A stretch of 64,000 nt of DNA from Escherichia coli. Its GTDB lineage: Bacteria > Pseudomonadota > Gammaproteobacteria > Enterobacterales > Enterobacteriaceae. The notes below the pieces were generated by a model. It had not been told where the DNA came from. It worked only from the letters and a program-made list of their open reading frames with translations, and made no database searches. The first letter of the stretch is position 1. Every line of letters starts with the position of its first letter. The position numbers were made by a program, and so were the translations under genes. The stretch lies in assembly GCF_044324785.1 (NCBI RefSeq), contig NZ_CP172127.1; one strand, given 5' to 3'. Positions 34,663 through 64,000 of this stretch are shown piece by piece.

Positions 34663-34669
34663 AACATTT

Positions 34670-36660: not shown

Positions 36661-36849
<189 letters not shown>

Positions 36850-36920
36850 GGGCAAGCGCGGGGATTTTCCCCGCGCATCTGACTAGCAGATTCATTTTCT
36901 CATGGCACCCCTTTTACACT

Positions 36921-37094
36921 TCAGTTAGTGCATGTTTTTTTCGATGCACTAATAGAACCATCATTACAGACAAATTTGCCGCCTGCCGTACAGTGTGAGA
37001 TCCCCCCTTTCGAACCAGAACAGGGTTTGCGCCCGGCATCGGCATAAAAGGAAGCAAGCGCTCCCATAACCAAGATAAGTGCCAGTTTTTTCAT
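36921..37094 (-). CDS. ydcA: Small secreted protein YdcA, 57 aa
   Basis: Hand translation: MKKLALILVMGALASFYADAGRKPCSGSKGGISHCTAGGKFVCNDGSISASKKTCTN*; signal peptide; GGAGG SD upstream. Confidence 0.8.
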   Translation of the reverse strand: MKKLALILVMGALASFYADAGRKPCSGSKGGISHCTAGGKFVCNDGSISASKKTCTN

Positions 37095-37264
37095 ATAACC
37101 TCCATGGTTTATCGAATCTTATGTTCGATTTGAACGTTATACGCTGGTTTATTTTGATACCGTTGATGAGATCAAAGATCGGGTGAATTGATTAAAAATA
37201 AGCCAGATGGACGTATGGGCAAGGATTATGGTTTTATTTGTCATACAAATAAATATAATAGGCG

Positions 37265-37328
37265 CTTCCGATGTAGACCCGTATTCTTCGCCTGTACCAC
37301 GGGTCGGTTTTAGTACAGGCGTTTTCTT
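37265..37328 (+). ncRNA. rydC: RydC small regulatory RNA (Hfq-dependent)
   Basis: Sequence cttccgatgtagacccgtattcttcgcctgtaccacgggtcggttttagtacaggcgttttctt matches RydC as I remember it; ends in a hairpin plus U-tract; located between ydcA and cybB. Confidence 0.8.
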
Positions 37329-37338
37329 TAAATATCCT

Positions 37339-37869
37339 TCAGGAACGTTTACGCGGCATCATGCGTAGAAGTGTGTTGTCCTTCCAGAAATAGTGGTGTG
37401 CCAGTGCAGCCGCAGCGTGCAACCCGATGACAAAGTATCCCAGATTCGCCAGCGTTTCATGCCACGACTTTAAGCTATCAACCCGTTCGAAATTGGCCTC
37501 TGATGCATAAGGCATCGTCATACCAAACGCAAACCACGGGTTACCCCGGTTATACATCATCACCAAACCAATCACTGGCAGCGCAATAAACAGGAGATAG
37601 ATCACCAAATGTCCCAAATGCGCCAGTCCCGTCATCATCGGTTTTGGCTTAGGTATAATCGGCGGGGTTGGGTATTTCAGCCTTAACAAAAGACGAACCA
37701 CCATCAGCACGAGAATTGTGATGCCACAGGAAACATGAATCATGTTGATGAGCGGCCGATCGCTACGTGGGAAGAAACCACGAAACTCCATTGCGCAATA
37801 CGCTGCGATAACCAGCAAAAAGACCAGCCAGTGAATGCTGATTTGTAACCTTGAGTATTTATTTTCCAT
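37339..37869 (-). CDS. cybB: Cytochrome b561
   Basis: Internal start MENKYSRLQISIHWLVFLLV… gives 176 aa with four TM helices. The 12-codon extension in the track ORF is judged spurious. Confidence 0.9.
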   Translation of the reverse strand: MENKYSRLQISIHWLVFLLVIAAYCAMEFRGFFPRSDRPLINMIHVSCGITILVLMVVRLLLRLKYPTPPIIPKPKPMMTGLAHLGHLVIYLLFIALPVIGLVMMYNRGNPWFAFGMTMPYASEANFERVDSLKSWHETLANLGYFVIGLHAAAALAHHYFWKDNTLLRMMPRKRS

Positions 37870-38057
37870 AACATTTCCTGCTTTAAAACAATTTGCCGTT
37901 AACATAACGAGCTTTTCTTAAAATTTCATTAAATATTGTTCACCCGTTTTCAGTACGTTACGTTTCACGGCAAGAATGTAGATTGCCCATCCCGCCATCC
38001 TGGTCTAAGCCTGGAAAGGATCAATTTTCATCCGAACGTTCCTGACAGGAGAAGACC

Positions 38058-39059
38058 ATGAGTAAAGTTGGTATTAACGGTTTTGGTCGTATCGGTCGAC
38101 TGGTGTTGCGTCGATTACTTGAAGTCAAAAGCAACATAGACATTGTTGCTATTAATGATCTCACTTCCCCAAAAATTCTCGCCTACCTGTTGAAACATGA
38201 TTCAAACTACGGACCGTTCCCCTGGAGCGTTGATTTTACGGAAGATTCACTTATCGTTGATGGAAAAAGCATCGCGGTTTACGCCGAAAAAGAGGCTAAA
38301 AATATTCCATGGAAAGCGAAAGGCGCAGAAATCATTGTCGAATGTACTGGCTTTTATACCTCCGCCGAGAAATCGCAGGCGCACCTTGATGCTGGTGCGA
38401 AGAAGGTGTTGATTTCCGCCCCTGCCGGTGAAATGAAAACCATCGTTTATAACGTCAATGACGACACACTGGATGGCAACGACACCATTGTTTCCGTGGC
38501 GTCATGCACCACTAACTGCCTTGCGCCGATGGCCAAAGCCTTGCACGACAGTTTCGGAATAGAAGTCGGCACGATGACGACCATTCATGCCTATACCGGC
38601 ACTCAGTCACTGGTGGATGGTCCGCGAGGTAAAGATCTACGCGCTTCACGTGCAGCGGCAGAAAATATCATTCCCCACACTACAGGTGCGGCAAAAGCCA
38701 TTGGTCTGGTGATCCCGGAACTGAGCGGCAAACTGAAAGGTCATGCGCAACGCGTGCCGGTGAAAACAGGTTCGGTCACTGAGCTGGTATCGATTCTCGG
38801 AAAAAAAGTGACTGCCGAAGAGGTGAATAACGCACTTAAACAAGCAACCACCAATAACGAGTCATTTGGTTATACCGATGAAGAAATAGTCTCTTCCGAT
38901 ATCATTGGCAGCCATTTCGGTTCGGTGTTTGATGCCACGCAAACGGAAATTACCGCCGTGGGCGATTTACAACTGGTGAAAACGGTCGCCTGGTACGATA
39001 ACGAATATGGCTTCGTCACGCAGCTTATTCGCACCCTCGAAAAATTCGCTAAACTCTGA
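38058..39059 (+). CDS. gapC: Glyceraldehyde-3-phosphate dehydrogenase, full length
   Basis: 333-aa uninterrupted ORF with NAD-binding GFGRIGR and the active-site Cys motif [10 protein letters not shown]. Confidence 0.9.
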
Positions 39060-39066
39060 CGCGCAC

Positions 39067-39095
39067 AGGCGGAGGAAAAAACCTCCGCCTCTTTC
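39067..39095 (+). terminator. Hairpin terminator between convergent gapC and aldA
   Basis: AGGCGGAGG-aaaaaa-CCTCCGCCT, a perfect 9-bp stem, followed by ctttc. Confidence 0.45.
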
Positions 39096-39100
39096 ACTCA

Positions 39101-40540
39101 TTAAGACTGTAAATAAACCACCTGGGTCTGCAGATATTCATGCAGGCCATGTTTACCATCTGCGCCGCCAATACCAGATTTACGCCATCCGGCGTGGAAG
39201 CCTTGCATAGCTTCGAAGTTTTCACGGTTGATGTAAGTTTCACCAAACTTCAGCCCTTTAATGGCTTTCATCGCGACGTTCAGATTTTGGGTATAGATTG
39301 ATGAGGTCAGGCCGTAATCACTGTCATTAGCCATTGCGATAGCGTCTTCCAGCGTGTCAAATGCGACCACTGGCAGCACCGGGCCAAAGGTTTCCTCGTG
39401 CATAATCGACATTTCCTGGCGAACATCCAGTAGCAATGTCGGCGGATAATAATATCCTTTCCCCTCTACCGCTTTGCCACCCAACGCCACTCTCGCCCCT
39501 TCTTCTACTGCGCGCGCCACTTTTTGCTCGACCCTTTCCAGCGCCGCGGCGTTAATCAACGGCCCCATCGCAATGTCGTTGCGTTCAGCGGGGTTACCAA
39601 ATTGAACCGCCTGCATCGCTTCACCCAGCCGATTGACGAACTGATCATAAATGCCTTTCTGTACATAAACACGTTCTGCACAGTTACACACTTGCCCACT
39701 ATTAATGACGCGTGAATCAACGATGGCTTTGACTGCCAGTTCAAGATCGGCATCGTCCATTACGATAGCTGGTGCTTTACCACCCAATTCCAGACACACT
39801 TTGGTGATGTTTTTCGCCGCAGTCGCCATGATCTTTTCACCTGCAGAGACGCTGCCTGTCATACTGACCATTGCGACCTTTGGGTTACCCGCCAGTTCTT
39901 GCCCAACGGTTTCACCACGCCCCAGAACAAGGTTAAACACGCCGCGCGGAAGGCCTATTTCATCGACGATTTTGGCGAATGCAATCGCATTGTTTGGCGT
40001 AAATTCACTGGGTTTAATGACAATGGTATTACCAGTCAAAAGAGCGGGAGCCATTTTGCGGGCAATGAGGAAGAACGGGAAGTTCCACGGCAGAATGCCG
40101 GTAGTCACACCAAGCGCACGTTTAAACAGAAGAATATTTTCTCCTGGACGATCGCTTTGAATAATCTCGCCCTCGTAACGCCGTGCCCACTCCGCCATGT
40201 AATCGATATAGTCCGCAGTAAAAGCCACTTCGACTTCAGCCAGCTGCTGGATCTTGCCCCCTTCTTCAACAATCAGCGCACTGATTTCACTGGCGCGTTC
40301 GCGGATCCCGGCGGAGATTTTGCGCAACCAACTGGCGCGTTCAATGGCAGGCAACGCTTCCCATTCTGGTTGTGCACGTTCTGCTGCATCGATTGCCTTA
40401 CGGGCATCCTCGGCCTGACCATCGGGAATGCGGGAAATGACAGCCTCAGTAGCAGGGTTTACCACATCAATCCATGCGTCTCCACGCCAGGTAACAAACT
40501 GTCCATCGATATACATAGGATGTTGAACGGGTACTGACAT
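39101..40540 (-). CDS. aldA: Lactaldehyde / aldehyde dehydrogenase A
   Basis: 479-aa ORF MSVPVQHPMYIDGQFV… with ALDH motifs. Confidence 0.9.
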   Translation of the reverse strand: MSVPVQHPMYIDGQFVTWRGDAWIDVVNPATEAVISRIPDGQAEDARKAIDAAERAQPEWEALPAIERASWLRKISAGIRERASEISALIVEEGGKIQQLAEVEVAFTADYIDYMAEWARRYEGEIIQSDRPGENILLFKRALGVTTGILPWNFPFFLIARKMAPALLTGNTIVIKPSEFTPNNAIAFAKIVDEIGLPRGVFNLVLGRGETVGQELAGNPKVAMVSMTGSVSAGEKIMATAAKNITKVCLELGGKAPAIVMDDADLELAVKAIVDSRVINSGQVCNCAERVYVQKGIYDQFVNRLGEAMQAVQFGNPAERNDIAMGPLINAAALERVEQKVARAVEEGARVALGGKAVEGKGYYYPPTLLLDVRQEMSIMHEETFGPVLPVVAFDTLEDAIAMANDSDYGLTSSIYTQNLNVAMKAIKGLKFGETYINRENFEAMQGFHAGWRKSGIGGADGKHGLHEYLQTQVVYLQS

Positions 40541-40736
40541 TGGCGACTCCTGTGATTTATATGTTTGTTTTTGGTAAATGCATTGTTAATTAACATCAAT
40601 CATCATAGAGACGGCATCGTGAAAGGACAATTCTGTGAAGGGCTTCATAAAAACAAGTGTAAAAGGAATAAAAGGCAGAAATAAACGTCAGGAGTCATGC
40701 CCGTTTGCAAACAAATGGTTAACAAACGGGCAATTT

Positions 40737-41537
40737 TTAACGTAACGAGCGACTTTCCATCGCCTCGATGAGCACCGCATCGTGTTTCAGCGTTTGCCAT
40801 GCCTGGATGACTTCTGCCGGAAAATCAACGTGAACGATAAAATCTCGCCCGCGTGGACCGTAGCCATCGCTATCATCGCGTAAACGTGGCAGCTCGCCAG
40901 TGAGTAGTGAGAGATAACGCTCAACCGGCCATAATCCTTGCAACGGATTAACAAAGATTACACTGTCTGCGTTGTTTCCTAGCTGAGGAACGAATCCGGG
41001 ATAACTTAACCAGCGAGGTGCATCGGGATTGTCCCCAGTCATACGGCGGAACGTCGCCATCGTGCGCCGCTGCATGGTGGGGTCCTGAACAACGATAGCC
41101 GTATGAACTCGTTCTACGGCCTGATTCAATAGCGCGATGCTAAAGCGTGCGTTTTCACCGCAGTTTGTTGACTGGTCTTCAATCCAGATTTTTTCATGCG
41201 GAATGTGCCAGAACTGATGAGCGATATCCGCCAGGATGGTCGCTTCTGCTCTGCCAGTGGTGCGAATAGTGTTGTAGTGCGGATGCTGTGCGATGGCACT
41301 ATACAAAAAAGTTGTCGAGTGACCGATACCACCACTAATCAGTAGAGGAATTTGCTGATCGCGGGCAATCTTGCATGCCGCATCGATAGTTGGCATAACC
41401 GCATTGCCTGCAAGGATCACGCAATCGGCCTGATACGGCATCTCACCGGAGAAATCATCCTGCGCCAGCCACTGACCGATAACATTTATGGCATCTATGG
41501 TTGCCGGCGAAAGCGTCGGAAACGGGGTAATGTTCAT
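40737..41537 (-). CDS. ydcF: DUF218-domain protein
   Basis: 266-aa ORF; synteny next to aldA. Confidence 0.85.
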
Positions 41538-41926
41538 GGTTCCTCCTTATCGTTTCCTTAAGAATACTGCGTGAGATAATAATGAGAAGCGGAGCACTCT
41601 GAAAGGAAGATGATGCTTTTTCTATCGCGCCATCGCGAACCAGACACTGGTTTTAGTCATACTGTATTTGCGGAGAAACTGTTGATAAAACATCTATAAC
41701 ATAATGTTCTATCATTTTTAAGTGACAGATAAGTTGGTGTGATATTTATGAAATATTCATTCTTATATTTCTCAATCAATGAGAACATTTGCAACACGCT
41801 CATTAATGGGAAATCCTTAAATTTAAATTGAATAATATCTGGCCTGAGCTATAAACTACTATCCGTCTAAGGAGACAAATTGTCCTTTTTATTCATCAAC
41901 ATAATACTATATGTCGAGAAACATAC

Positions 41927-42421
41927 ATGAAAAAAATGTTTCAACTTTTAGAAACCGCCTGGCCTGCCGTAAAAACAACAGGACTTACAGGTTGCGTAAC
42001 CGCTCCGGAAACTGAAGATAACCTTCTTTTATTAGAGGATAAATACGCAACACATATTCCAAAAGACTATCGGCAGTTATTGTCTCATTTTGGCGCATGT
42101 CATTTTGCCGATCCTCAAATTTATACTTTGAAGGATCTGGACAGATATTACCCTCTATTTTTGCAACAATGGGAAGATTATAAAAAAGAATATCCATTAT
42201 TGAACAACATTGATCCTTTTCCTGTTGGCAGTTTTGGCGATGGGAGTGTAGCTTTTCTTGACCGCAACAGCCTAAAAATTTATATTCTCATTCATGATTT
42301 TGGTATATTTTCCGATGATGTCGGTGATTTCCCTTGTGAGTTATGCTTTGAAAATTTTGGTGAGTTAGTGGAAATGCAAGTTGAAATGATTCTTTATTTA
42401 CAGCAATGTGGAGTCTCATGA
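41927..42421 (+). CDS. SUKH / SMI1-KNR4-family protein (immunity-protein-like), 164 aa
   Basis: AT-rich ORF; motif blocks LLLEDKYATHIPKDYRQLLSHFGA and PFPVGSFGDGSVAFLD fit the SMI1/KNR4 pattern as I remember it. Not a gene I place at this position in K-12. Confidence 0.55.
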   Translation: MKKMFQLLETAWPAVKTTGLTGCVTAPETEDNLLLLEDKYATHIPKDYRQLLSHFGACHFADPQIYTLKDLDRYYPLFLQQWEDYKKEYPLLNNIDPFPVGSFGDGSVAFLDRNSLKIYILIHDFGIFSDDVGDFPCELCFENFGELVEMQVEMILYLQQCGVS

Positions 42422-42717
42422 AAAATAAAATCATCACTCCTGTCCTTACTGAAAACAAAGTGAATTTGATAGCAGAAAAATATTGTAAAAAGTATAATCT
42501 TAATGGCTCGCTGGCATACAAAATCACTGCTATTAAATTTCTTCCTGATGGTATGAAATCATACGACCTTGATATTCCATTATGGATGGTAGTCAGAGAT
42601 GTTAAAGGTTGGGATGATATGGAAATTACGATTTTTATTTCTGACAAAAACAGTGAAGTTCTTTGTTGCAGTAATATTTGGTATCCAGTATATCGTCCTC
42701 ATCAAGCAGATTTGTAA
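42418..42717 (+). CDS. Hypothetical protein, 99 aa, translationally coupled to the upstream SUKH gene
   Basis: ATG at 42418 overlaps the upstream TGA (ATGA); GGAG lies 5 to 8 nt upstream. The ORF track lists the same frame starting at 42406. No recognisable domain. Confidence 0.5.
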   Translation: MKNKIITPVLTENKVNLIAEKYCKKYNLNGSLAYKITAIKFLPDGMKSYDLDIPLWMVVRDVKGWDDMEITIFISDKNSEVLCCSNIWYPVYRPHQADL

Positions 42718-42763
42718 TAAGCACGTAAGGAGTATCTCCCTTGCTATTTTTCAGAATTCATAA

Positions 42764-42800
42764 AGAAAAAACCCGGCGCTAAATGCTTACCGGGTTTTAG
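42764..42800. terminator. Bidirectional terminator shared by hrpA and the inserted two-gene cassette
   Basis: aaaaaa-ACCCGG…CCGGGT-tttt hairpin immediately downstream of both convergent units. Confidence 0.5.
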
Positions 42801-42822
42801 ATTTATCAGTCAAATAGCAGGG

Positions 42823-45800
42823 TTAACCGCTAATCTGCTCCATCGCCTGCAAAATACGCTTATCTGAAATCGGATAAGGCGTACCAAGTTGTTGAGCGAA
42901 GTAACTAACGCGCAACTCTTCTATCATCCAACGGATCTCTTTCACGTCTTCATCCTCACGACGTGCGGGCGGCAGTTTGTTGATCCATTGCTGCCACGCC
43001 TGCTGGACGTTTTCGACTTTCAGCATCTGAGCACGGTCGCGATGCGGATCAACCGCCAGTTTTTCCAGCCGTTTTTCAATCGCCTGCAAATATCGCAGCG
43101 TGTCGCCCAGCCGTTTAAAACCGTTGCCAGTGACAAAACCGCGATACACCAGCCCGCCCATCTGCGCTTTAATGTCAGAAAGCCCCAGCGCCATGGTCAT
43201 ATCCACCCGCCCTTTCAGGCGTTTGTTGATATTGAACACTGCCGTAAGGATTTGCTCGACCTGCTTTGCAATATCCACCACCGTGTCGTTCAGTTCAGCG
43301 CGAACTTTTTCATGCAGCGCAGCAAAGCCTTCTTCCGTCCAGACCGGGCCACCATTGGCGTCGATCAGTTGATCCACACCGCAGGAGATACAGTCGTCGA
43401 TCAGCTCCAGCACTTTGCCATACGGGTTAAAGTACAGCCCAAGTTTGGCTTTGTTTGGCAACTTCTCATGCAAGTATTTGATTGGTGAAGGAATATTCAG
43501 CAGCAGTAAACGACGAAGACCGTTCCACATCGCTTGCTTTTGTTCCAGCGGGTTATCAAACAGTTTGATCGCCACGCTGTCGCGCTCATCCACCAACGCT
43601 GGCCACGCCTTCACTTTGTAGTTGCCACGCTTCTGTTCGTAGCTTTCCGGCAGCTGACCAAAACTCCAGATATGTAAGCCGCTCTGCTCGATACCGTCAT
43701 CCGCCACCGCAGACAGCGTTTCCTGCACTTTGCCTTTCAGAGCATCTTTCAGATCCTGTAATGAGCGCCCTTCTTTTAACTTCTTGTTTTTGTCATCCAC
43801 CACACGGAAGGTGATTTTCAGGTGATCGGGCACCTGATCCCAGTGCCAGTCTTCGCGGTCAACGGTGACGCCAGTCATCCGCCGTAGCTCTCGTTCAAGA
43901 CTGTCGAGCAACGGCAATTCCAGCGGTGTGACGCGGCCTAGAAACGCTTCGGCGTAGTTTGGCGCGGGCACAAAATTACGGCGTACTGGTTTCGGCAACG
44001 ATTTAATCAGTGCGATGATCAGTTCACGACGCAGGCCGGGGATCTGCCACTCAAACCCGTTCTCCTCAACCTGATTAAGCAGCGGCAGCGGGATATGCAC
44101 AGTCACACCGTCAGCATCCGCGCCGGGCTCAAACTGATAACTCAAACGCAGCTTGAGATTGCCCTGATGCCAGAAGTTCGGGTAATCCAGCTTGCTGATC
44201 TTTTCCGCCCCTTCTTTGATCAACATGCTCTTTTCAAAGTTGAGCAAATCAGGCGTTTCGCGGCTGACTTTTTTCCACCAGCTGTCGAAGTGACGTGCGG
44301 AGATCACATCGTGGCTGATGCGCTGGTCGTAAAACTCAAACAGCGTTTCGTCATCCACCAGAATATCGCGGCGACGTGTTTTGTGTTCCAGTTCTTCCAC
44401 TTCGGCCCGTAGTTTCAGGTTTTCACGGAAGAATGCGTGACGCGTCTGCCAGTCACCTTCCACCAGCGCATGGCGAATAAAGAGTTCACGGCATAACGCC
44501 GGATCGATCTGGCTGTAGTTGACCTTACGCGCGGCAACAATCGGCAACCCGTAAACAGTGACTTTTTCCGTTGCCATCACCGCGCCCTGCGCCCGTTCCC
44601 AGTGTGGTTCGCTGTAGGTGCGTTTAATTAAATGCTGAGCAACTGGCTCCACCCATTCTGGATCGATGCGTGCCGCAATGCGCCCCCACAGGCGGCTGGT
44701 TTCTACCAGTTCCGCCACCATTACCCATTTCGGCGGTTTTTTAAATAAGCCGGAACCGGGGAAAATGGAGAAACGCGCGTTACGTGCGCCGGTATATTCT
44801 TGTTTATCGGCATCTTTCATGCCGATATGGGAAAGTAAACCCGTCAGCAACGCAATATGAATTTCACGATACTCCGCCGGTTCGCTGTTAACCGGAATGC
44901 CAAGTTCTTTCACCACCTGGCGCAACTGGGTGTAGATATCCTGCCATTCGCGCACGCGCAGATAGTTGAGATAATCGGTACGACACAGGCGACGGAAGGC
45001 GTTTGAAGAAAGCGCCTTTTGCTGCTCGCCAAGATAATTCCACAGATTTACAAACGCGAGGAAGTCGGATTCTTTGTCGTGGAAGCGACGATGTTTTTCG
45101 TCCGATGCCTGCTGTTTGTCCATCGGTCGTTCGCGCGGATCCTGGATGGAGAGCGCGGACGTGATAATCATCGCCTCACGCACGCAGCCATGTTTTTGCG
45201 CTTCCAGCACCATACGCGCCAGACGAGGATCGACAGGCAACTGCGAGAGCTGGCGACCGAGCGGCGTCAGTTTATAGGCGCTGGCCTGTTCATCCGTGGT
45301 GATCGCGCCCAGCTCTTCGAGCAGACGCACGCCATCCTGGATATTACGTTTATCCGGTGCTTCGACAAATGGGAACGCGGCGATATCGCCCAACCCCAGC
45401 GCGGTCATCTGTAAAATAACCGAGGCCAGGTTGGTACGCAGAATCTCCGGATCGGTAAACTCCGGGCGCGAGAGGAAATCGTCTTCGGAATAGAGACGAA
45501 TACAGATCCCTTCGGACACACGACCACAGCGGCCTTTACGCTGGTTGGCAGACGCCTGCGAAATGGGCTCAATCGGCAAACGCTGCACTTTGGTGCGATA
45601 GCTGTAGCGGCTGATACGCGCCGTACCTGGGTCGATAACGTATTTAATCCCCGGTACGGTCAGCGACGTTTCCGCGACGTTGGTCGCCAGCACAATGCGC
45701 CGTCCACTGTGCGACTGGAACACGCGGTTCTGTTCGCTGTTCGAAAGCCGCGCATAAAGCGGCAAGATTTCGGTATGGCGTAAGTTCAGCTTGTTCAGCG

Positions 45801-46725
45801 CATCGGCGGTATCGCGAATTTCCCGCTCACCGCTCATAAAGATCAGAATGTCGCCGGGACTTTCCTGGCTCAGTTCGTCTACGGCGTCAAAAATCGCCTG
45901 CAACTGATCGCGCTCGGTGTCATCGGCTTCTTCAACAATCGGGCGATAGCGCACTTCCACCGGATAGGTCCGACCGGAGACTTCGATAATCGGCGCATTA
46001 TTAAAGTGGCGCGAAAAGCGTTCCGGGTCGATAGTCGCGGAAGTGATAATGATTTTTAGGTCAGGACGCCGCGGCAGCAACTCTTTCAAATAGCCGAGCA
46101 GAAAATCGATATTCAGGCTGCGTTCGTGCGCTTCGTCAATAATGATAGTGTCGTACTGCATCAGCAGGCGGTCTTGCTGGATCTCCGCCAGCAGGATACC
46201 GTCGGTCATCAGCTTGACCATCGTGTTATCACTTACGTGATCGCTGAAACGCACTTTGTAACCGATGCAACCGCCCGGCTCAGTTTTCAGCTCTTCCGCA
46301 ATACGGTTGGCCACCGTTCGTGCCGCCAGACGACGCGGCTGGGTATGGCCGATCAGCCCTTTAATCCCGCGGCCCAACTCCATACAGATTTTCGGTAGCT
46401 GAGTCGTTTTACCGGAACCCGTTTCCCCGGCGACGATCACTACCTGGTGATCACGAATTGCTTCGAGAATGTCCTGCTTTTTCTGACTAACCGGCAAATT
46501 GTCAGGATAAGTGATTTCCGGTCGTGCCGCTTCACGCAGCAGGACTTTCCCTGCCGCATGGTCAATCTCTTTCGCCATCTCCTGGAAAATGGCCTGTTGT
46601 GCATCAGGATTTTTAACCTTCTTCACGCCGTGCAGACGGCGAGAAAAACGCAGTCTGTCGCGCAGCATCAGCGAATCCAGCCGCTGCTGCAAGGCCGTAA
46701 AGGTCAATTTTTGTTGTTCTGTCAT
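42823..46725 (-). CDS. hrpA: ATP-dependent RNA helicase HrpA (DEAH-box)
   Basis: 1300-aa ORF with Walker A GETGSGKTT, DEAH box (IIIDEAHERSL) and helicase C-terminal domains. Confidence 0.95.
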   Translation of the reverse strand: MTEQQKLTFTALQQRLDSLMLRDRLRFSRRLHGVKKVKNPDAQQAIFQEMAKEIDHAAGKVLLREAARPEITYPDNLPVSQKKQDILEAIRDHQVVIVAGETGSGKTTQLPKICMELGRGIKGLIGHTQPRRLAARTVANRIAEELKTEPGGCIGYKVRFSDHVSDNTMVKLMTDGILLAEIQQDRLLMQYDTIIIDEAHERSLNIDFLLGYLKELLPRRPDLKIIITSATIDPERFSRHFNNAPIIEVSGRTYPVEVRYRPIVEEADDTERDQLQAIFDAVDELSQESPGDILIFMSGEREIRDTADALNKLNLRHTEILPLYARLSNSEQNRVFQSHSGRRIVLATNVAETSLTVPGIKYVIDPGTARISRYSYRTKVQRLPIEPISQASANQRKGRCGRVSEGICIRLYSEDDFLSRPEFTDPEILRTNLASVILQMTALGLGDIAAFPFVEAPDKRNIQDGVRLLEELGAITTDEQASAYKLTPLGRQLSQLPVDPRLARMVLEAQKHGCVREAMIITSALSIQDPRERPMDKQQASDEKHRRFHDKESDFLAFVNLWNYLGEQQKALSSNAFRRLCRTDYLNYLRVREWQDIYTQLRQVVKELGIPVNSEPAEYREIHIALLTGLLSHIGMKDADKQEYTGARNARFSIFPGSGLFKKPPKWVMVAELVETSRLWGRIAARIDPEWVEPVAQHLIKRTYSEPHWERAQGAVMATEKVTVYGLPIVAARKVNYSQIDPALCRELFIRHALVEGDWQTRHAFFRENLKLRAEVEELEHKTRRRDILVDDETLFEFYDQRISHDVISARHFDSWWKKVSRETPDLLNFEKSMLIKEGAEKISKLDYPNFWHQGNLKLRLSYQFEPGADADGVTVHIPLPLLNQVEENGFEWQIPGLRRELIIALIKSLPKPVRRNFVPAPNYAEAFLGRVTPLELPLLDSLERELRRMTGVTVDREDWHWDQVPDHLKITFRVVDDKNKKLKEGRSLQDLKDALKGKVQETLSAVADDGIEQSGLHIWSFGQLPESYEQKRGNYKVKAWPALVDERDSVAIKLFDNPLEQKQAMWNGLRRLLLLNIPSPIKYLHEKLPNKAKLGLYFNPYGKVLELIDDCISCGVDQLIDANGGPVWTEEGFAALHEKVRAELNDTVVDIAKQVEQILTAVFNINKRLKGRVDMTMALGLSDIKAQMGGLVYRGFVTGNGFKRLGDTLRYLQAIEKRLEKLAVDPHRDRAQMLKVENVQQAWQQWINKLPPARREDEDVKEIRWMIEELRVSYFAQQLGTPYPISDKRILQAMEQISG

Positions 46726-46916
46726 AACGTTAGTGGGCAGTAGGCTGCCTGATTAATTTTCTTTTAAATGATAGATATAGAGTACCACATCGCGGCTTTC
46801 TATGCGTTGTTCAATAAATTCGAACATAGGCTTCGATTTATTGCGCTATCTCTGTGGCAGGATTGTGAATAAAGTGTCAACAAGCAACGGGGCATCGCCC
46901 ATTCAAACATCTATAA

Positions 46917-47531
<615 letters not shown>

Positions 47532-47584
47532 CCGGACACGGTCTTGATGTGGACTGTAGATATTCAGTCCACATCTCAATCCAC

Positions 47585-50648
<3,064 letters not shown>

Positions 50649-55773: not shown

Positions 55774-58700
55774 TTAGAACGTTTTCTTGAAGTTCAGCAT
55801 CACGCCTTTATCGCTGATGCCGTCCTCTTTCCAGTGGTAAGCATCCAGATTCAGCGAACTTTCTTTGCTGCTGTACTTCACGCCGACACTTGCCAGGCTG
55901 TTGATGCCGCCGCCCTTCTGTCCGTCATCGACGTTAAAGTGCTGACTGCCTGCGCCTGCCAGGCTTGCCGTACGCTGGCTCTTCGCGTAGCTCAGGTTCG
56001 GCCCGCCTTCCAGCGTAGCGCTAGCGCTCCAGCCGTCTTTACCTGCATAGTCCAGTTTCAGCCCGACGATGCTGTCCACCGCCGTTTCGCTGCCACTGTT
56101 CATATTCAGGTTAAAGTCTCCGGCATTGCGCTCCTGATAGCCACCTTCCAGTGTGTGACGCAGTTTAACACCCGCATATGGCGTAACCTTCAGTCCTTCG
56201 CTCGGTTCGAAAGTCTTCGCCCCTTCGCTGCGGAACTCCAGGTACTGCTGCTTCACGTCGGTATCAGCCGTTTTGTTTGTGTTGCTAAATGCAATCGAAC
56301 GGCTGCTGTCAAGGTTGTGAACGTCATAACGCAATGCGTTATTCCAGTTCATGCCGTTGTCGAAGGACATCTGATGTTTCAGGCCAAAGAACTGGCTATA
56401 ACCGCCTGTAACGCCATTATCACCCGCTTTCTGCGCACCGTCGCCATCGAGGCGCGCGATACCGTACTCCAGACTCATCGTCTGGCTTTCGCTCAGGTCG
56501 ATGGTTTTACGCAGTGCCAGCATGTCGTACTCGGTATTGTTCCCCAGCTCCGCGCGCGGATCGCCTTTCGCCACCACGTTGAACGCCAGACCGTTACCCA
56601 CTTTCGGTGCGGCATCCGCCAGCATGCTAAAGCGGTTGCTGAGCACACGCGCTTCGCGGAATACCGTGGTCGCCTGGCTACCGCTGACCTGTTTCAGGGC
56701 ACTGTTCAGTTCGGCAGTCGTGCCGACGTTCAGGCTGGTATACAGCTCGTTGTTGGTGTAACCCGCATCCAGTGCTTTCGCGACGTCATTAACCGAAGCA
56801 TCGGTCGCCACATCGGTATAAGCGTTTTTGCTCATAGTGACGTCAACGTTGCCGCTGGCATCGGTACTGCCTTTAGCGTTCCAGACAACTGAAGAGGAAG
56901 TGATATTCTCCGCGCCGCTGATATTTTCACCTTTGAAAACATCATCAATCACCACGGTAGTATCAGCAGTTCCTGCACTAAAGCCAGTATTTACCTTGAC
57001 GTTGTCACTGATAACAAGGTTATTGGCTTTCAAGGTGCCGGAACTTCCGTCGCTATTAGTACCAATAGTGTAATTGGTAAGTTTTTGCTGACTTACAGCA
57101 TTGACTGGTGCCGCAGGAACATTACCTTGCCCAGGCGTCGCAGAAGCGACCGGTACGATTATATCCGCAGTTCCATCCTGACTGTTTCTCGTCCCTGTGG
57201 TATTTGGCGCATAAATCTCGCAACCAATATTACACAACAGGTTGATTATCCCATTATTCACAATCGCTTTAGTGGAACCACCAAACGCCCATGAATTATC
57301 TGCATAAACGTTAATGACACCGTCTTTAGTATTATTAATCGTTGTTGCAGAACCATTTCCTTTGATGCCAATCAGACCTTCACCGTTGCTTCCATCTGCT
57401 TTGCCCTGTTCAGTACCCACGTTAATTGTGCCGCTGTTCACTAACTGAACAGTATAGCTGGTGGTGCCTCCGCTAATAGCAACTGAACCATCACCCTGAA
57501 CATTAATTGTTCCGGCGTTAGCAAAATTATACCCGCGACCTAAATCAATCAGTGGAGCATCTGGATTGATACCATTAATTACACCGTTTTCTGTATTCCA
57601 AATCCATTTGCCGTTGCTGTTAGAGCCTGTGCTGGCAGTTTTAATCGCACTGTAACCGTTTGTAGCGATAATTTTGCCGCGGTTAACCTGTGAAAGAGAA
57701 TCACTGGTGCGTGTGATATTAACGATGGCATTTTCCCCTCCCGCAATAGCATTGCCGCTATTTGTAAGCGTTGAGCCGGCTTCATTATAAAGTACGAAAC
57801 TGCCGTTAATTAAGGCACTACCATCTGTGGCAGTTGTCATCTCCCCCGTATTTACAACGTTTTGTTTATAACTATCACCGCTAATTACACCGCTAAAGCT
57901 TCCCTCATTGAAGAAGGCAGACCCGCCTTTTAACATTAACAGTTCGGTTGTCATACTGCCCGAGGCGCGATTGTAAACACTGGCATTGGCAGTAAGCTTG
58001 TCGACATCCATGCTCCCGCTGTTTTCCAGCCCCTGGACAATATTCAAATCACCATTAACTGTCAGGCTGGCCTTATCCTCGTTATATAACCATAGATTGG
58101 CATCGACATCGCCGTTCAGTATTTCTGTACCATAATTAGCCAGCGGTTTAATGGTAACAAAGCCATCTCGGGTAACTGTTTTGGTAATGTTCTCTCCACT
58201 GGCACTCAATTCAGATAACAGTTCCAGATTCTCTGCAGGAGCACCATAATGAGAGTCGGCGCTATCAATTTCCGCTCCGTTGAGATTAATCTCACCATAG
58301 TTGAGGATAATGCCTGTACCATCATTATAAAACGCCTGGCCCGTATCAACATTAATATTGATTACACCAGTTTGGTCGTTTATTGCCGTAGCACCTTTAT
58401 ACACTGCCATCCCTACCAGCGTATTACTACCCAGGTTTGCATCGTAATCTGCATTTTTCTCGAGGTTAATGATTCCCTGGTTAATAACCATATTACTGTT
58501 ACCGTAGGCGGCCATACCGGCACCTGCGTTATATACAGTAATTACACCACCTTCCAGGTTGGTCGCAATAGCGTTGTTACGAGCGCCACCCCCGGTGTCT
58601 GTCCCGGTTGCCATACCAACGCCATAATCTTTTGCCGTTGCCCCCGGAAGATCGGTACGCAAACTGGTGGTGTCATTGTCATCAATCCATAACGTATCCA

Positions 58701-61700
58701 CCGTAATATTGCCTGCATTATCCGCCGTTGAGTTATCGATGGCTAACATGCCAATGCTACCGCGTCCATACATATCAATGACAGCACCTTCGGCATTGAG
58801 AACAGAGCCTTTATTATACGCCTCCATCCCCATCATGCTTGCTACGCTGTTATTAAACACGCGCTGATCCGTTGACCCCGTGAGTGCAGCCATATTAACA
58901 ACGCTATGTTGCTCCATTACTTTTGAGGTAATTACCCCTTTGTTTACTGCTCTGCCGCCGTTAGAGGTCAAGAAGGCCGTGTTATCTGGTTCCGGTGCTG
59001 GCGTATTAGTTGAGGCATAATCATACAGAGAAAGTGTGATATTCCCGTTATTGATACCTGTGGTATTTTCGCCAAAGATACCAGCAAAGCTGATATTCCA
59101 GATATCAACATTACCGTTATTTATAACCTCAGAGCTACTTTCTGCCTTTATAATCTGTGGTGTTTGTGCATAGTAATGATCATAATTTTCAATATCCCGC
59201 ATATTGAAAGTAGCTTCACTGCCAATCTCAATAGCTGCTTTATTTTTTAACTGGATAAGGCTTGCATATCCTAGTTGCAGATCACCACTGATCGTTGAGT
59301 CACCATTCAGATATATCTTCGATTCACCATCAATACCAATAAGTGGCGTATTACCGAAGAAAGTCCGTTTGTTAGCAATGGCTGAACCATCGGTCAGCGC
59401 ATTTATTTCACCAACAAATGCAATCCCGCCATTCAGATTGATGTTGTTACCATCACCGGAAACAATAAGACCAGAAATATTTTCCTGGCTACCGTCAAAA
59501 TTCGAGACATCACGTGTGGTAGTTTCACCATCCGCAACAAGCGTTAATTTACCATCCAGTGTCACATTGTTATTATGACCACTGACATTTACGCCCACGG
59601 AAGCGTCATAAAAATACTCTGCTGCATTGTCTGCGCTCTGATCTTTATCAACCAGAATATTACCAGTTATATCAATTGTATTGGCATCACCGGAGACGTT
59701 AATACCTGTAGCTTTCTGACCAACGACATTAAGATCCTGCATTGCCATTGTCAGGCTATTATTATCGCCAGTTAATGTCAGCCCTGTTGAAAAATCACCG
59801 ACCTGCATACTTCCCGCGAGGGAGATTTTCCCCTCGTCGCTGGTAATAGCAAATCCCGTCGCTGAATTGCTGACATCCACATCACCGGTATTGGCAAGTG
59901 TCGCGTTGTCGCCATTGATCAGTACACCGATCGAGTCTGCGTCCGTGACGGTCATATTGCCTTTGTTATCGACGGCGGCATTATCGCCAGAAATATCAAT
60001 GCCGTGACCGCCGCCGCTGACATCCAGATCGCCATCCTGGATAACTTTTCCGTTATTGCCGTTGATTTCCGTGCCGGTGGAGTCTTTACCGTCAACGGTG
60101 GTTTTGCCGCTGTTGTTCGCCGTGGCGTCGTCACCGTTAATCTGTGTACCGGTGCCGCCGTTGGTGATGGTGCTCTCGCCTTCGTTGTTAACAACCGCCT
60201 TGTCGCCGTCGATCTGAATACCGATGGACTCCGGATCGGTGACAGTCATGGTACCCTTGTTGTCCACCGTTGCGCTGTCACCGGTAATATCAATCCCGTG
60301 ACCGCCGCCGCTGACGTCCAGATCGCCGTCCTGGATAACTTTTCCGTTATTGCCGTTGATTTCCGTGCCGGTGGAATCTTTACCGTCAACGGTGGTTTTG
60401 CCGCTGTTGTTCGCCGTGGCGTCATCACCGTTAATCTGCGTACCGGTGCCGCCGTTGCTGATGGTGCTGTCGCCTTCGTTGTTAACAACCGCCTTGTCGC
60501 CGTCGATCTGAATACCGATGGACTCCGGATCGGTGACAGTCATGGTACCCTTGTTGTCCACCGTTGCGCTGTCACCGGTAATATCAATCCCGTGACCGCC
60601 GCCGCTGACGTCCAGATCGCCGTCCTGGATAACTTTTCCGTTATTGCCGTTGATTTCCGTGCCGGTGGAATCTTTACCGTCAACGGTGGTTTTGCCGCTG
60701 TTGTTCGCCGTGGCGTCATCACCGTTAATCTGCGTACCGGTGCCGCCGTTGCTGATGGTGCTGTCGCCTTCGTTGTTAACAACCGCCTTGTCGCCGTCGA
60801 TCTGAATACCGATGGACTCCGGATCGGTGACGGTCATGGAGCCCTTGTTATCCACCGTTGAACTGTCACCGGTGATATCAATGCCGTGACCGCCGCCGCT
60901 GACATCCAGATCACCGTCCTGGATAACTTTTCCGTTATTGCCGTTGATTTCCGTGCCGGTGGAATCCTTGCCGTCAACGGTGGTTTTGCCGCTGTTGTTC
61001 GCCGTGGCGTCATCACCGTTAATCTGCGTACCGGTGCCGCCATTGCTGATGGTGCTGTCGCCTTCGTTGTTAACAACAGCCTTGTCGCCGTCGATCTGAA
61101 TACCGATGGACTCCGGATCGGTGACGGTCATGGTGCCCTTGTTATCCACCGTTGAACTGTCACCGGTGATATCAATGCCGTGACCGCCGCCGCTGACATC
61201 CAGATCACCGTCCTGGATAACTTTTCCGTTATTGCCGTTGATTTCCGTGCCGGTGGAATCCTTGCCGTCAACGGTGGTTTTGCCGCTGTTGTTCGCCGTG
61301 GCGTCATCACCGTTAATCTGCGTACCGGTGCCGCCGTTGCTGATGGTGCTGTCGCCTTCGTTGTTAACAACCGCCTTGTCGCCGTCGATCTGAATACCGA
61401 TGGACTCCGGATCGGTGACAGTCATGGTACCCTTGTTGTCCACCGTTGCGCTGTCACCGGTAATATCAATCCCGTGACCGCCGCCGCTGACGTCCAGATC
61501 GCCGTCCTGGATAACTTTTCCGTTATTGCCGTTGATTTCCGTGCCGGTGGAATCTTTACCGTCAACGGTGGTTTTGCCGCTGTTGTTCGCCGTGGCGTCA
61601 TCACCGTTAATCTGCGTACCGGTGCCGCCGTTGCTGATGGTGCTGTCGCCTTCGTTGTTAACAACCGCCTTGTCGCCGTCGATCTGAATACCGATGGACT

Positions 61701-63459
61701 CCGGATCGGTGACGGTCATGGAGCCCTTGTTATCCACCGTTGAACTGTCACCGGTGATATCAATGCCGTGACCGCCGCCGCTGACATCCAGATCACCGTC
61801 CTGGATAACTTTTCCGTTATTGCCGTTGATTTCCGTGCCGGTGGAATCCTTGCCGTCAACGGTGGTTTTGCCGCTGTTGTTCGCCGTGGCGTCATCACCG
61901 TTAATCTGCGTACCGGTGCCGCCATTGCTGATGGTGCTGTCGCCTTCGTTGTTAACAACAGCCTTGTCGCCGTCGATCTGAATACCGATGGACTCCGGAT
62001 CGGTGACGGTCATGGTGCCCTTGTTATCCACCGTTGAACTGTCACCGGTGATATCAATGCCGTGACCGCCGCCGCTGACATCCAGATCACCGTCCTGGAT
62101 AACTTTTCCGTTATTGCCGTTGATTTCCGTGCCGGTGGAATCCTTGCCGTCAACGGTGGTTTTGCCGCTGTTGTTCGCCGTGGCGTCATCACCGTTAATC
62201 TGCGTACCGGTGCCGCCATTGCTGATGGTGCTGTCGCCTTCGTTATTGACAACCGCCTTGTCACCGTCAATCCGGATACCCATGGACTCCGGATCGGTGA
62301 CAGTCATCGTGCCCTTGTTATCCACCGTCGCACTGTCACCGGTGATATCAATCCCGTGACCGCCGCCGCTGACGTCCAGATCGCCGTCCTGGATAACTTT
62401 CCCGTTATTACCGTTGATTTCCGTGCCGGTGGAGTCTTTACCGTCAACGGTGGTTTTGCCGCTGTTGTTCGCCGTGGCGTCGTCACCGTTAATCTGCGTG
62501 CCGGTGCCGCCGTTGCTGATGGTGCTCTCGCCTTCGTTATTGACGATGGCCTTGTCACCGTCAATCCGGATACCCATGGACTCCGGATCGGTGACAGTCA
62601 TGGTGCCCTTGTTATCCACCGTCGCGCTGTCGCCGGTGATATCAATGCCGTGACCGCCGCCGCTGACGTCCAGATCGCCGTCCTGGATAACTTTCCCGTT
62701 ATTACCGTTGATTTCCGTGCCGGTGGAGTCTTTACCGTCAACGGTGGTTTTGCCATTGTTGTTTACTGTGGCATTATCACCCGTAATAACAAGCTCACCG
62801 TTGTGATTGTATTGCCACTTCGTTGCGCCATCTGCGCTCACCCCTTCAAGGGCAACAGTGTTATTTGCTTCATCAATCTGCCAAAGATTAATTGTTGCCT
62901 TACGACCACTGTTATCTTGCAGAGAAATAGTCCCGTCAGCATTCTCGGTATAAGTAAAAACTGAATCGCGAATAGTTAACGTTTTTTCTGTTTTATCGAG
63001 AATAACGTCATTATTAAACGAAATCGGTTTGGAAGGTGTAGGGGTATCATCCGGATCGTCCGGTATTATCTCATCTCCGCCTGGAGTTGGAGGCACTGGA
63101 GTATCGTCTGAATCATCATCGGGTGGTGTCGGCGGTACAGGGGCATTGTTGCGATGATGATGATTACCATCGTCGTTTAGTTCGACGACCGCCAGCGCGG
63201 TGATTAATGCAAAGGCACCAGAGGCAACCCACGGCATAAGGTTTTGCTGTACTTGTGGAGAACATTCGGGAGGTATTTGCTTTAACGCTTCCGGAGTCAG
63301 CATGTCAGGGTCTGCCGGACAAGTCACATTGGTATTTTTCTTTTCGCCTGTGGCCGTTTCTGTCTCTGTAATATCAGCCGCCCACCCCTGACCACTCAGA
63401 GCTAATGCAATACAGGCTGATAATAGGGTTTTCCTTTGCATAATAAATCCTTCTGACAA
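55774..63459 (-). CDS. ydbA: Giant autotransporter adhesin-like protein YdbA, uninterrupted
   Basis: 2561-codon ORF. Signal peptide (MQRKTLLSACIALALSGQGWA; the start may be the internal ATG at 63441), Pro/Asp-rich linker, repetitive passenger domain, and a C-terminal beta-barrel region ending in F. Confidence 0.9.
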   Translation of the reverse strand: MSEGFIMQRKTLLSACIALALSGQGWAADITETETATGEKKNTNVTCPADPDMLTPEALKQIPPECSPQVQQNLMPWVASGAFALITALAVVELNDDGNHHHRNNAPVPPTPPDDDSDDTPVPPTPGGDEIIPDDPDDTPTPSKPISFNNDVILDKTEKTLTIRDSVFTYTENADGTISLQDNSGRKATINLWQIDEANNTVALEGVSADGATKWQYNHNGELVITGDNATVNNNGKTTVDGKDSTGTEINGNNGKVIQDGDLDVSGGGHGIDITGDSATVDNKGTMTVTDPESMGIRIDGDKAIVNNEGESTISNGGTGTQINGDDATANNSGKTTVDGKDSTGTEINGNNGKVIQDGDLDVSGGGHGIDITGDSATVDNKGTMTVTDPESMGIRIDGDKAVVNNEGDSTISNGGTGTQINGDDATANNSGKTTVDGKDSTGTEINGNNGKVIQDGDLDVSGGGHGIDITGDSSTVDNKGTMTVTDPESIGIQIDGDKAVVNNEGDSTISNGGTGTQINGDDATANNSGKTTVDGKDSTGTEINGNNGKVIQDGDLDVSGGGHGIDITGDSSTVDNKGSMTVTDPESIGIQIDGDKAVVNNEGDSTISNGGTGTQINGDDATANNSGKTTVDGKDSTGTEINGNNGKVIQDGDLDVSGGGHGIDITGDSATVDNKGTMTVTDPESIGIQIDGDKAVVNNEGDSTISNGGTGTQINGDDATANNSGKTTVDGKDSTGTEINGNNGKVIQDGDLDVSGGGHGIDITGDSSTVDNKGTMTVTDPESIGIQIDGDKAVVNNEGDSTISNGGTGTQINGDDATANNSGKTTVDGKDSTGTEINGNNGKVIQDGDLDVSGGGHGIDITGDSSTVDNKGSMTVTDPESIGIQIDGDKAVVNNEGDSTISNGGTGTQINGDDATANNSGKTTVDGKDSTGTEINGNNGKVIQDGDLDVSGGGHGIDITGDSATVDNKGTMTVTDPESIGIQIDGDKAVVNNEGDSTISNGGTGTQINGDDATANNSGKTTVDGKDSTGTEINGNNGKVIQDGDLDVSGGGHGIDITGDSATVDNKGTMTVTDPESIGIQIDGDKAVVNNEGESTITNGGTGTQINGDDATANNSGKTTVDGKDSTGTEINGNNGKVIQDGDLDVSGGGHGIDISGDNAAVDNKGNMTVTDADSIGVLINGDNATLANTGDVDVSNSATGFAITSDEGKISLAGSMQVGDFSTGLTLTGDNNSLTMAMQDLNVVGQKATGINVSGDANTIDITGNILVDKDQSADNAAEYFYDASVGVNVSGHNNNVTLDGKLTLVADGETTTRDVSNFDGSQENISGLIVSGDGNNINLNGGIAFVGEINALTDGSAIANKRTFFGNTPLIGIDGESKIYLNGDSTISGDLQLGYASLIQLKNKAAIEIGSEATFNMRDIENYDHYYAQTPQIIKAESSSEVINNGNVDIWNISFAGIFGENTTGINNGNITLSLYDYASTNTPAPEPDNTAFLTSNGGRAVNKGVITSKVMEQHSVVNMAALTGSTDQRVFNNSVASMMGMEAYNKGSVLNAEGAVIDMYGRGSIGMLAIDNSTADNAGNITVDTLWIDDNDTTSLRTDLPGATAKDYGVGMATGTDTGGGARNNAIATNLEGGVITVYNAGAGMAAYGNSNMVINQGIINLEKNADYDANLGSNTLVGMAVYKGATAINDQTGVININVDTGQAFYNDGTGIILNYGEINLNGAEIDSADSHYGAPAENLELLSELSASGENITKTVTRDGFVTIKPLANYGTEILNGDVDANLWLYNEDKASLTVNGDLNIVQGLENSGSMDVDKLTANASVYNRASGSMTTELLMLKGGSAFFNEGSFSGVISGDSYKQNVVNTGEMTTATDGSALINGSFVLYNEAGSTLTNSGNAIAGGENAIVNITRTSDSLSQVNRGKIIATNGYSAIKTASTGSNSNGKWIWNTENGVINGINPDAPLIDLGRGYNFANAGTINVQGDGSVAISGGTTSYTVQLVNSGTINVGTEQGKADGSNGEGLIGIKGNGSATTINNTKDGVINVYADNSWAFGGSTKAIVNNGIINLLCNIGCEIYAPNTTGTRNSQDGTADIIVPVASATPGQGNVPAAPVNAVSQQKLTNYTIGTNSDGSSGTLKANNLVISDNVKVNTGFSAGTADTTVVIDDVFKGENISGAENITSSSVVWNAKGSTDASGNVDVTMSKNAYTDVATDASVNDVAKALDAGYTNNELYTSLNVGTTAELNSALKQVSGSQATTVFREARVLSNRFSMLADAAPKVGNGLAFNVVAKGDPRAELGNNTEYDMLALRKTIDLSESQTMSLEYGIARLDGDGAQKAGDNGVTGGYSQFFGLKHQMSFDNGMNWNNALRYDVHNLDSSRSIAFSNTNKTADTDVKQQYLEFRSEGAKTFEPSEGLKVTPYAGVKLRHTLEGGYQERNAGDFNLNMNSGSETAVDSIVGLKLDYAGKDGWSASATLEGGPNLSYAKSQRTASLAGAGSQHFNVDDGQKGGGINSLASVGVKYSSKESSLNLDAYHWKEDGISDKGVMLNFKKTF
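59900..62760. repeat. Tandem in-frame repeats inside ydbA: about 10 copies of a 294-bp (98-codon) unit
   Basis: Protein unit GKTTVDGKDSTGTEINGNNGKVIQDGDLDVSGGGHGIDITGD…NGGTGTQINGDDATANNS recurs about ten times. Alternate-frame shadow ORFs recur at exactly 294-bp spacing (60246, 60540, 60834, 61128, 61422, 61716, 62010, 62304), several with identical translations. Confidence 0.9.
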
Positions 63460-63924
63460 ATATAAAGAACGCCAGAATTCATAAAGATCATTGAAATCAA
63501 CAACCCTTACAAATATCTGACTGTAAAATATTCAAAAAATATATGATAAGCATTCTATATTGTCAGCAGTACATTATTCAACCTATTTTGTTGATGTTTC
63601 CTAAATATAGATGCGGTGAATGTATAACAACATAAAAACAATATTTATATATGATTAAAAATCTTCTCAAGACAATAATAATTTCGATGTTAAATTCGCA
63701 CAGAGAATATTATTAATGTTGATTATTTGTTGGGGTTATTTATTTGATGAGCAGCAATTCACTAGAGTTGCAAACGCCTCTCTTGTAAGACATTCATCTT
63801 TTCTCAGGAATGCCGATGTAATCGGTGTGCTCCTTTGCAGCAACACGCTGCTCTATGATCTTGTTAACTAATACCCTATTTTTCACCGACTACTACCAAA
63901 TGGTGTTTGAACTACCGTTGCATG

Positions 63925-64000
63925 TTATTTCCGTATCCACATACCATTTATGCCCTGCACGTATTCACCGGGTTTTGCCTTTTCCAACAGCTTCGTCCCT
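63925..64000 (-). CDS. Possible 3' end of a minus-strand CDS running off the right edge; identity unknown
   Basis: Open minus-strand frame over 24 codons (…KLLEKAKPGEYVQGINGMWIRK*) ending at TAA 63925..63927, in sequence with coding-like GC content. Too short to identify. Confidence 0.3.
   Translation of the reverse strand, partial: GTKLLEKAKPGEYVQGINGMWIRK

Follow-up and report, generated by a model that had tools for sequence, protein, structure and literature searches.

Genes and features at the right edge of the window

The window, i.e. the whole stretch of 64,000 nucleotides that was analysed, ends on its right side at the junction of two minus-strand transcription units: here the ydbH-ynbE-ydbL operon ends and ydbA begins. 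The features of this junction are listed below by window coordinates, with the evidence on which each assignment rests.

55774..63441, minus strand: intact ydbA (BigA/YdbA-type autotransporter, 2555 aa); open reading frame, Pfam
63442..63924, no strand: ydbL-ydbA intergenic spacer, 483 bp, GC 31.7%, non-coding
63442..63476, minus strand: 35 bp directly upstream of the ydbA ATG, with an AAGGA Shine-Dalgarno-like motif at 63452-63448; 100% invariant among relatives
63477..63715, no strand: AT-rich core, GC 24.3%, the fastest-diverging part of the spacer; composition, conservation profile
63538..63566, minus strand: second candidate promoter, CTGACA, 17 nt, TATATT, 10/12 matches; promoter scan
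63552..63581, minus strand: candidate sigma-70 promoter for ydbA, TTGAAT, 18 nt, TAGAAT, 9/12 matches; promoter scan, conservation
63755..63924, minus strand: ydbL-proximal part of the spacer, about 170 nt, about 40% GC, probably the ydbL 3' UTR; 80-95% invariant among relatives
63925..64000, minus strand: 3' end of ydbL (YdbL/DUF1318, periplasmic chaperone-like protein); translation, DNA match to annotated genes, Pfam, PDB

The end of ydbL, the spacer and the start of ydbA are already annotated in RefSeq genomes of identical sequence, and the junction is a real and ordinary one. The initial annotation had described about 465 bp of very AT-rich sequence from position 63460. The AT-richness was confirmed but the extent was not, the spacer covering 483 bp (63442-63924). 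The start at 63460 is explained by the list of open reading frames, which extends ydbA to a TTG at 63459, whereas the annotated ATG in the identical RefSeq sequence is at 63441.

The gene at the right edge is ydbL

A minus-strand gene tail of 24 codons had been reported at the right edge, and this is a real gene end: translation of 63999..63922 on the minus strand gives GTKLLEKAKPGEYVQGINGMWIRK*, that is 24 codons followed by a TAA stop at 63927-63925. The tail had been considered too short to identify, which is half true. Taken alone, its 24 residues align with positions 69-92 of the 92 positions of the DUF1318 profile, i.e. with its C-terminus (E = 7.8e-5), but the score of 23.6 bits is just under the Pfam cut-off of 27 bits. 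The gene runs on past the right edge and the window holds only its last 24 codons and stop. The full-length YdbL sequence was taken from two E. coli strains, N3 and 19KM1831, which are identical to the window across the visible tail. In a megablast search of 5426 complete E. coli genomes, these were the only two that matched the full 63400-64000 stretch, with 99.5% DNA identity for 19KM1831 and 100% for N3 (99.3% for N3 over 30000-50000); about 2390 further genomes matched just its first 77 bases, which correspond to the start of ydbA plus 35 bp. The upstream part of ydbL and the ynbE/ydbL junction lie outside the window and were read from N3, a close relative and a different genome.

Just past the window edge, where the initial annotation had looked to stop codons as an argument against the gene, the frame stays open in both relatives, for 107 codons in the annotation of 19KM1831 and for 123 in N3, where an upstream in-frame start was chosen. 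Full-length YdbL scored 105.9 bits (E = 1.6e-30) on Pfam DUF1318 (PF07027) and matched the solved structure PDB 28oj_A, 'Probable chaperone-like protein YdbL', over query residues 22-107 (E = 1.3e-31); a scan of YdbL against NCBIfam returned no family match. Both genomes annotate the gene as 'YdbL family protein', preceded by ynbE and ydbH, and in both the gene after the spacer is a ydbA-type autotransporter, followed by pdxI. The order ydbH-ynbE-ydbL is found in N3, in 19KM1831 and in all the cryptic-clade loci described below; it lies beyond the window edge and we infer it for the window from the overlap-identical sequence. Homology, annotation and gene order together identify the tail as the 3' end of ydbL, the last gene of the ydbH-ynbE-ydbL operon.

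The YdbL allele retains the residues required for function

Three redundant AsmA-like proteins, among them YdbH, have been implicated in carrying phospholipids to the outer membrane. YdbH and the lipoprotein YnbE together form a bridge between the two membranes, and YdbL modulates the multimerisation of YnbE (PMC11126948, PMC8593681). According to work in K-12, YdbL is a small protein of the periplasm; it binds YnbE at its C-terminal helix and modulates how the YdbH-YnbE bridge is assembled (PMC11126948, bioRxiv 10.64898/2026.03.16.712125). Its structure has been solved and the functionally needed residues mapped: L24, R28, R61, Y65, L68, I79, K86, L87, W104 and K107 are needed for function and for YnbE/YdbH binding (bioRxiv 10.64898/2026.03.16.712125).

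The protein encoded here belongs to the same family as K-12 YdbL (b1383, PDB 28oj) and to the same length class, with 107 residues compared to 108 in K-12, the terminal F108 of K-12 being absent. Identity to K-12 is 62% for the protein (ungapped) and about 70% for the DNA, and BLASTP gave 71% against representatives of the K-12-type cluster. The C-terminal tail reads KLLEKAKPGEYVQGINGMWIRK here and KLVARAKPGEYVQGINGKWVRKF in K-12. On alignment, nine of the ten required residues are kept (L24, R28, R61, Y65, L68, K86, L87, W104 and K107, the last four within the tail visible in the window) and I79 is replaced conservatively by valine. Two further differences, E60A and R90K, are the same substitutions that were reported as tolerated (bioRxiv 10.64898/2026.03.16.712125), while N72H is outside the tested set. 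The N-terminus, MKRTLLIAVWIIGLVSSSAMA, lies outside the window and resembles a Sec signal peptide by inspection. Since the essential residues are kept and the differences are tolerated, conservative or, for N72H, untried, this allele very probably encodes a functional protein, even though its partner YnbE is of the E. coli type.

The spacer is AT-rich and contains candidate ydbA promoters

The GC content of the spacer is well below that of the whole window (48.8%) and is unevenly distributed, rising from the AT-rich core to 40.2% in 63716-63924. Only 0.7% of the 483-bp segments in the 64 kb are as AT-rich, and the spacer is among the three deepest troughs. Further troughs of comparable or greater depth, with a GC content of 29-33% over 483 bp, lie at 1867-2349, 12980-13462 and 42274-42756. 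By blastn, homology of the spacer to K-12 is confined to the 35 bp before the ydbA ATG, from window position 63476, which are 86-89% identical to K-12 and to E. coli AHB2. The AT-rich core (63477-63715) showed no detectable similarity to the K-12 ydbL-feaR and paaY-ydbA spacers.

Sigma-70 promoters were scanned for on the basis of -35 and -10 hexamers spaced by 16-18 nt. The scan returned 5 promoter-like sites compared to 3.0 ± 1.5 in shuffled sequences, a number that is not significant alone. The candidate TTGAAT-18-TAGAAT sits about 110 nt upstream of the ydbA ATG, and both of its hexamers are unchanged in the cryptic-clade loci L017 and L019-L024, i.e. in all the haplotype variants aligned. 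The -35 hexamer of the second candidate, CTGACA, is not kept in L019-L021, which have ATAGCA at this place. TTGAAT-18-TAGAAT is the best-conserved candidate promoter for ydbA. The initial annotation had proposed that the AT-rich stretch is the ydbA promoter and regulatory region. It is indeed non-coding and directly upstream of an intact ydbA, and a promoter or regulatory role is plausible from the consensus matches and their conservation. The ydbL-proximal third of the spacer would most likely be the ydbL 3' UTR, and the AT-rich remainder would most likely carry the ydbA promoter and leader.

No intrinsic terminator (GC-rich hairpin followed by a T-run) was found in 63300-64000, the sole local hairpin in the ydbL 3' region, GCAGCgtgttGCTGC, being devoid of a T-run. 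Since no terminator was found after ydbL, transcription from the ydbH operon may read through into ydbA. The AT-rich part may also be a target of silencing by the nucleoid protein H-NS, if it resembles other AT-rich promoters of adhesin genes in this respect. The only expression note found for ydbA reports an increased transcript in a K-12 rpoZ mutant (PMC5811629).

Search for hidden elements in the spacer

In addition to the terminator search, the region was screened for functional RNAs, repeats and small genes. Rfam gave no match at E ≤ 1 on either strand of 63000-64000. In 63400-64000 the only direct repeat was one 18-nt pair at chance level, and there was no inverted repeat; no copy of the spacer occurs elsewhere within the 64-kb window. 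Small open reading frames of at least 12 aa, searched on both strands of the spacer, are broken in relatives with two exceptions, one of 18 codons and one of 14 codons starting with TTG; the breaks are due partly to a 1-bp indel in an A-run near 63802. A 51-aa plus-strand frame (63716-63871) was rejected, as it is broken in relatives like the others. The 14-codon plus-strand TTG frame (63560-63604) is broken in L022 only and was also rejected as a gene.

We considered whether the spacer might nonetheless hide a functional element, either a small RNA derived from the ydbL 3' UTR, a leader peptide encoded by the 18-codon frame or a small protein comparable to YnbG. In K-12 a small gene, ynbG, does lie in the spacer upstream of ydbA, but the spacer analysed here has no homology to ynbG. 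The 80-95% invariance of the 170 nt that follow the ydbL stop could speak for a small RNA, and RNAalifold predicted in them a 13-bp long-range helix with two one-sided compatible changes. However, the identity of this part to relatives (89-96%) is not above that of ydbL third-codon positions (94-96%), and in the absence of any excess over these positions its conservation is explained by shared recent ancestry. Its predicted structure is not exceptional either, with a fold z-score of -1.2 for the ydbL 3' region, 23 of 200 shuffled sequences folding as well and a covariation term of about 0; neither a terminator nor an Rfam family accompanies it. As for the leader peptide, the 18-codon frame MLIIYFLNILQSDICKGC (63553-63497, minus strand) lies in the presumed ydbA leader and is open in all five distinct haplotype variants. 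Its five nucleotide differences from L022 all change an amino acid, however, and no Shine-Dalgarno motif precedes it, so that it is probably a chance frame. Its ATG overlaps a candidate -10 hexamer. A hidden functional element of any of these three kinds therefore appears improbable.

The ydbA gene is intact and mosaic

The product of the ydbA open reading frame contains the BigA_N (PF25784, 109.4 bits) and BigA_beta (PF25783, 93.3 bits) domains, and the gene includes 9.8 copies of a 294-bp (98-aa) tandem repeat at 59902-62781. The locus is 7668 bp long here, 7080 bp in 19KM1831 and 7961 bp in N3, where it is frameshifted or split; these lengths among the closest relatives indicate that the repeat number is variable and that the N3 copy is pseudogenised. 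From inside the 3' end of ydbA onward (window 56991-51786), DNA identity to K-12 is 95.4%. The region 56991-59900, which encodes the central and C-terminal passenger, gave a single 258-bp blastn match to K-12 ydbA, with 77% identity; its identity to the cryptic-clade copies is about 82%. Since 56991-59900 is nearly unlike K-12 but identity is 95.4% from 56991 leftward, ydbA is, as judged from these alignments, a mosaic with breakpoints of its own.

No fea-paa cluster lies between ydbL and ydbA

On the K-12 chromosome, the end of ydbL (1,446,206) and the start of ydbA (1,465,392) are 19 kb apart, and the interval is occupied by feaR-feaB-tynA-paaZ, paaA-K, paaX, paaY and ynbG. There, ydbA is preceded by paaY, and the opposite strand carries ynbG, which encodes 21 aa. 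In contrast, ydbH-ynbE-ydbL and ydbA are not separated by any fea or paa gene in the closest complete genomes, N3 and 19KM1831, and the feaR-feaB-tynA-paa cluster is absent from this interval in the window genome. Heterogeneity of the interval flanked by the core genes ydbH-ynbE-ydbL and ynbC-ynbD-azoR has been described before (PMC4951805). We found the K-12-type ydbL-feaR junction in 4182 of the 5426 complete E. coli genomes, and the remaining E. coli include at least two other arrangements without fea and paa genes, the AHB2 scar type and the O157:H7 type. The ydbA-upstream spacers compared are all AT-rich, with 25-32% GC.

In AHB2 (L027, 9159-9532) the junction is a clean scar left by deletion of the whole feaR..paaY cluster: 64 bp from the start of a K-12-type ydbL-feaR spacer run directly into positions 14-330 of the paaY-ydbA spacer (80% identity). 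The scar is followed by a ydbA-like gene of 2575 aa. E. coli O157:H7 PA20 (L026, 8812-9548) carries a third ydbL allele and a ydbL-ydbA spacer of 413 bp, which are 99% (YdbL protein) and 97.6% (spacer DNA) identical to those of Escherichia sp. E1V33 (L007, 10001-10730). At these identity levels, O157:H7 and E1V33 define a second ydbL-spacer haplotype common to different Escherichia lineages.

The AHB2 junction makes it conceivable that the spacer analysed here is likewise the scar left by excision of a K-12-type feaR..paaY cluster and not a separate haplotype, all the more as the ydbL-feaR adjacency is old, being seen in the outgroups Pseudocitrobacter, Raoultella, Pluralibacter and Cedecea. 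However, apart from the 35 bp next to ydbA we found no similarity to either of the K-12 spacers. Moreover, the adjoining ydbL is a different allele, with only about 70% DNA identity to K-12, and the same spacer, 483-486 bp long, is orthologous and diverging across several cryptic-clade lineages. We thus regard a deletion scar as very unlikely. The initial annotation had further suggested, from synteny, that the tail could be the gene preceding ydbA in K-12, a guess that fails because the fea-paa cluster is absent here: the K-12 gene is paaY, the tail is ydbL, and the two are 19 kb apart in K-12. A reading of the tail as paaY, and of the spacer as the K-12 paaY-ydbA spacer, could appeal to the presence of ydbA downstream in both genomes and to the common 35 bp before its ATG, but it is practically untenable given the match of the tail to the DUF1318/YdbL C-terminus, the YdbL annotation in identical sequence, the lack of fea and paa genes at the locus in the closest complete genomes, and a blastn comparison of window 64000..63300 with the last 162 bp of K-12 paaY, the spacer and the ydbA start, which matched only from 35 bp before the ATG on and left the paaY 3' end and the rest of the spacer without a match.

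A rare haplotype shared with cryptic-clade Escherichia

A blastn search suited to distant matches likewise found the 483-bp spacer in N3 and 19KM1831 only, among the 5426 complete E. coli genomes. At the protein level, YdbL has 62-72% identity with its counterparts in K-12, AHB2, O157:H7, E. whittamii, Escherichia sp. E1V33 and SCPM-O-B-8794 (a record labelled E. coli), and it is the most divergent of the Escherichia alleles compared. A peptide-pattern scan of 100,044 species-representative genomes gave a best match of 72% and no donor species. Its exact sequence does belong to a protein cluster at 90% identity that comprises 311 E. coli contigs, together with the non-representative genomes of Escherichia sp. 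E2748, E4694, E2593, E4930, E4742, E2562, E1130 and E10V10.

The cryptic-clade loci, from unclassified Escherichia, contain ydbH-ynbE-ydbL, a homologous spacer of 484-486 bp and a BigA/YdbA gene. Spacer identity to the window is 94.8% for L017 (94-96% between N3 and L017), 86.8% for L022 and 81-82% for L019-L021. Identity between N3 and the cryptic-clade loci changes along the locus as follows.

ydbH 3' end and ynbE: 84-87%
ydbL: 97-98% (third codon positions 94-96%)
ydbL-proximal 170 nt of the spacer: 89-96%
rest of the spacer: 77-94%
first 600 bp of ydbA: 91-93%

In one further Escherichia sp. locus (L016, GCA_005781185.1, 10325-10885), the spacer and almost the entire ydbA gene have been lost through a deletion that begins about 27 bp after the ydbL stop; of ydbA, just the 3' end remains in front of pdxI.

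The comparison with K-12 runs the opposite way. Across the ydbH 3' end, N3 and K-12 share about 99% identity, their ynbE genes are identical, and from the first ydbL codons identity is about 70%; the break falls at 12849-12857 of the N3 locus (L001), at the ynbE stop and ydbL start, just beyond the right edge of the window. The ydbH and ynbE of N3 are accordingly of the E. coli type, unlike the cryptic-clade versions. Elsewhere the window is ordinary E. coli, with about 97.4% identity to typical E. coli strains over 30000-50000. From this pattern of identities, ydbL and the spacer are a distinct haplotype common to this E. coli lineage and to cryptic-clade Escherichia. Given the drop in identity to K-12 at the ynbE/ydbL junction, from about 99% to about 70%, homologous recombination is the most likely route by which the haplotype arrived, with its breakpoint at this junction just outside the window. 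The recombination tract, of cryptic-clade type, would start at this junction and fade within ydbA. The haplotype may have passed from the cryptic clade to E. coli or in the reverse direction, or it may be an old shared polymorphism.

Significance and comparison with known systems

Taken together, we hold with high confidence that the segment comprises the end of ydbL, a non-coding spacer with a likely 3' UTR and ydbA promoter and leader, and a recombined haplotype. The result names a previously unnamed gene tail, corrects an assumption of synteny and finds nothing unusual hidden in the spacer; its importance is small. What it adds is evolutionary and modest: ydbL-ydbA haplotypes cross species boundaries, and the breakpoint at ynbE/ydbL is sharp. 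The ydbL-ydbA interval of Escherichia occurs as several deeply diverged haplotypes, namely the K-12 type, the deletion scar, the O157:H7/E1V33 type and the type of the window. The locus might be of use for studying the co-evolution of YdbL and YnbE, and also how intact YdbA/BigA autotransporters are regulated, a question that K-12, with its ydbA pseudogene, does not allow to be addressed. A more speculative proposal takes ydbL, the spacer and the 5' part of ydbA to be an introgressed haplotype of the cryptic clade, which would pair the most divergent Escherichia YdbL known with an E. coli-type YnbE and YdbH. Either this mismatch of chaperone and client or the private sequence upstream of ydbA, including the conserved stretch of the 3' UTR and the 18-codon leader frame, might alter how the YdbH-YnbE lipid bridge or the intact YdbA adhesin is regulated in this rare lineage; we consider such an effect unlikely.

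Compared to K-12, ydbL occupies the same place after an identical ynbE (as read from N3), but it is followed here by ydbA and in K-12 by the convergent feaR. In K-12, IS2 and IS30 have split ydbA and made it a pseudogene, whereas the ydbA of the window is intact; K-12 ydbA data are of little use here because they concern an IS-disrupted pseudogene with a different upstream sequence. The K-12 paaY-ynbG-ydbA spacer (330 bp, GC 25%) has the same role upstream of ydbA, a similar AT-richness and the last 35 bp with the ribosome-binding site in common with the spacer of the window. The rest is unrelated, and the window contains no ynbG homologue. In the AHB2 and O157:H7 junctions, ydbL likewise lies directly upstream of a ydbA-like autotransporter and the spacers are AT-rich (27-32% GC); that of AHB2 is similar to the window only in the 35 bp next to the ATG, and that of O157:H7 has no similarity to it. 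The closest counterparts are the cryptic-clade loci L017 and L019-L024 (e.g. GCA_005781135.1 and GCA_004212225.1), which differ from the window in the ydbA repeat number and in the central part of ydbA and share with it the same ydbL allele and the gene order ydbH-ynbE-ydbL-ydbA-pdxI.
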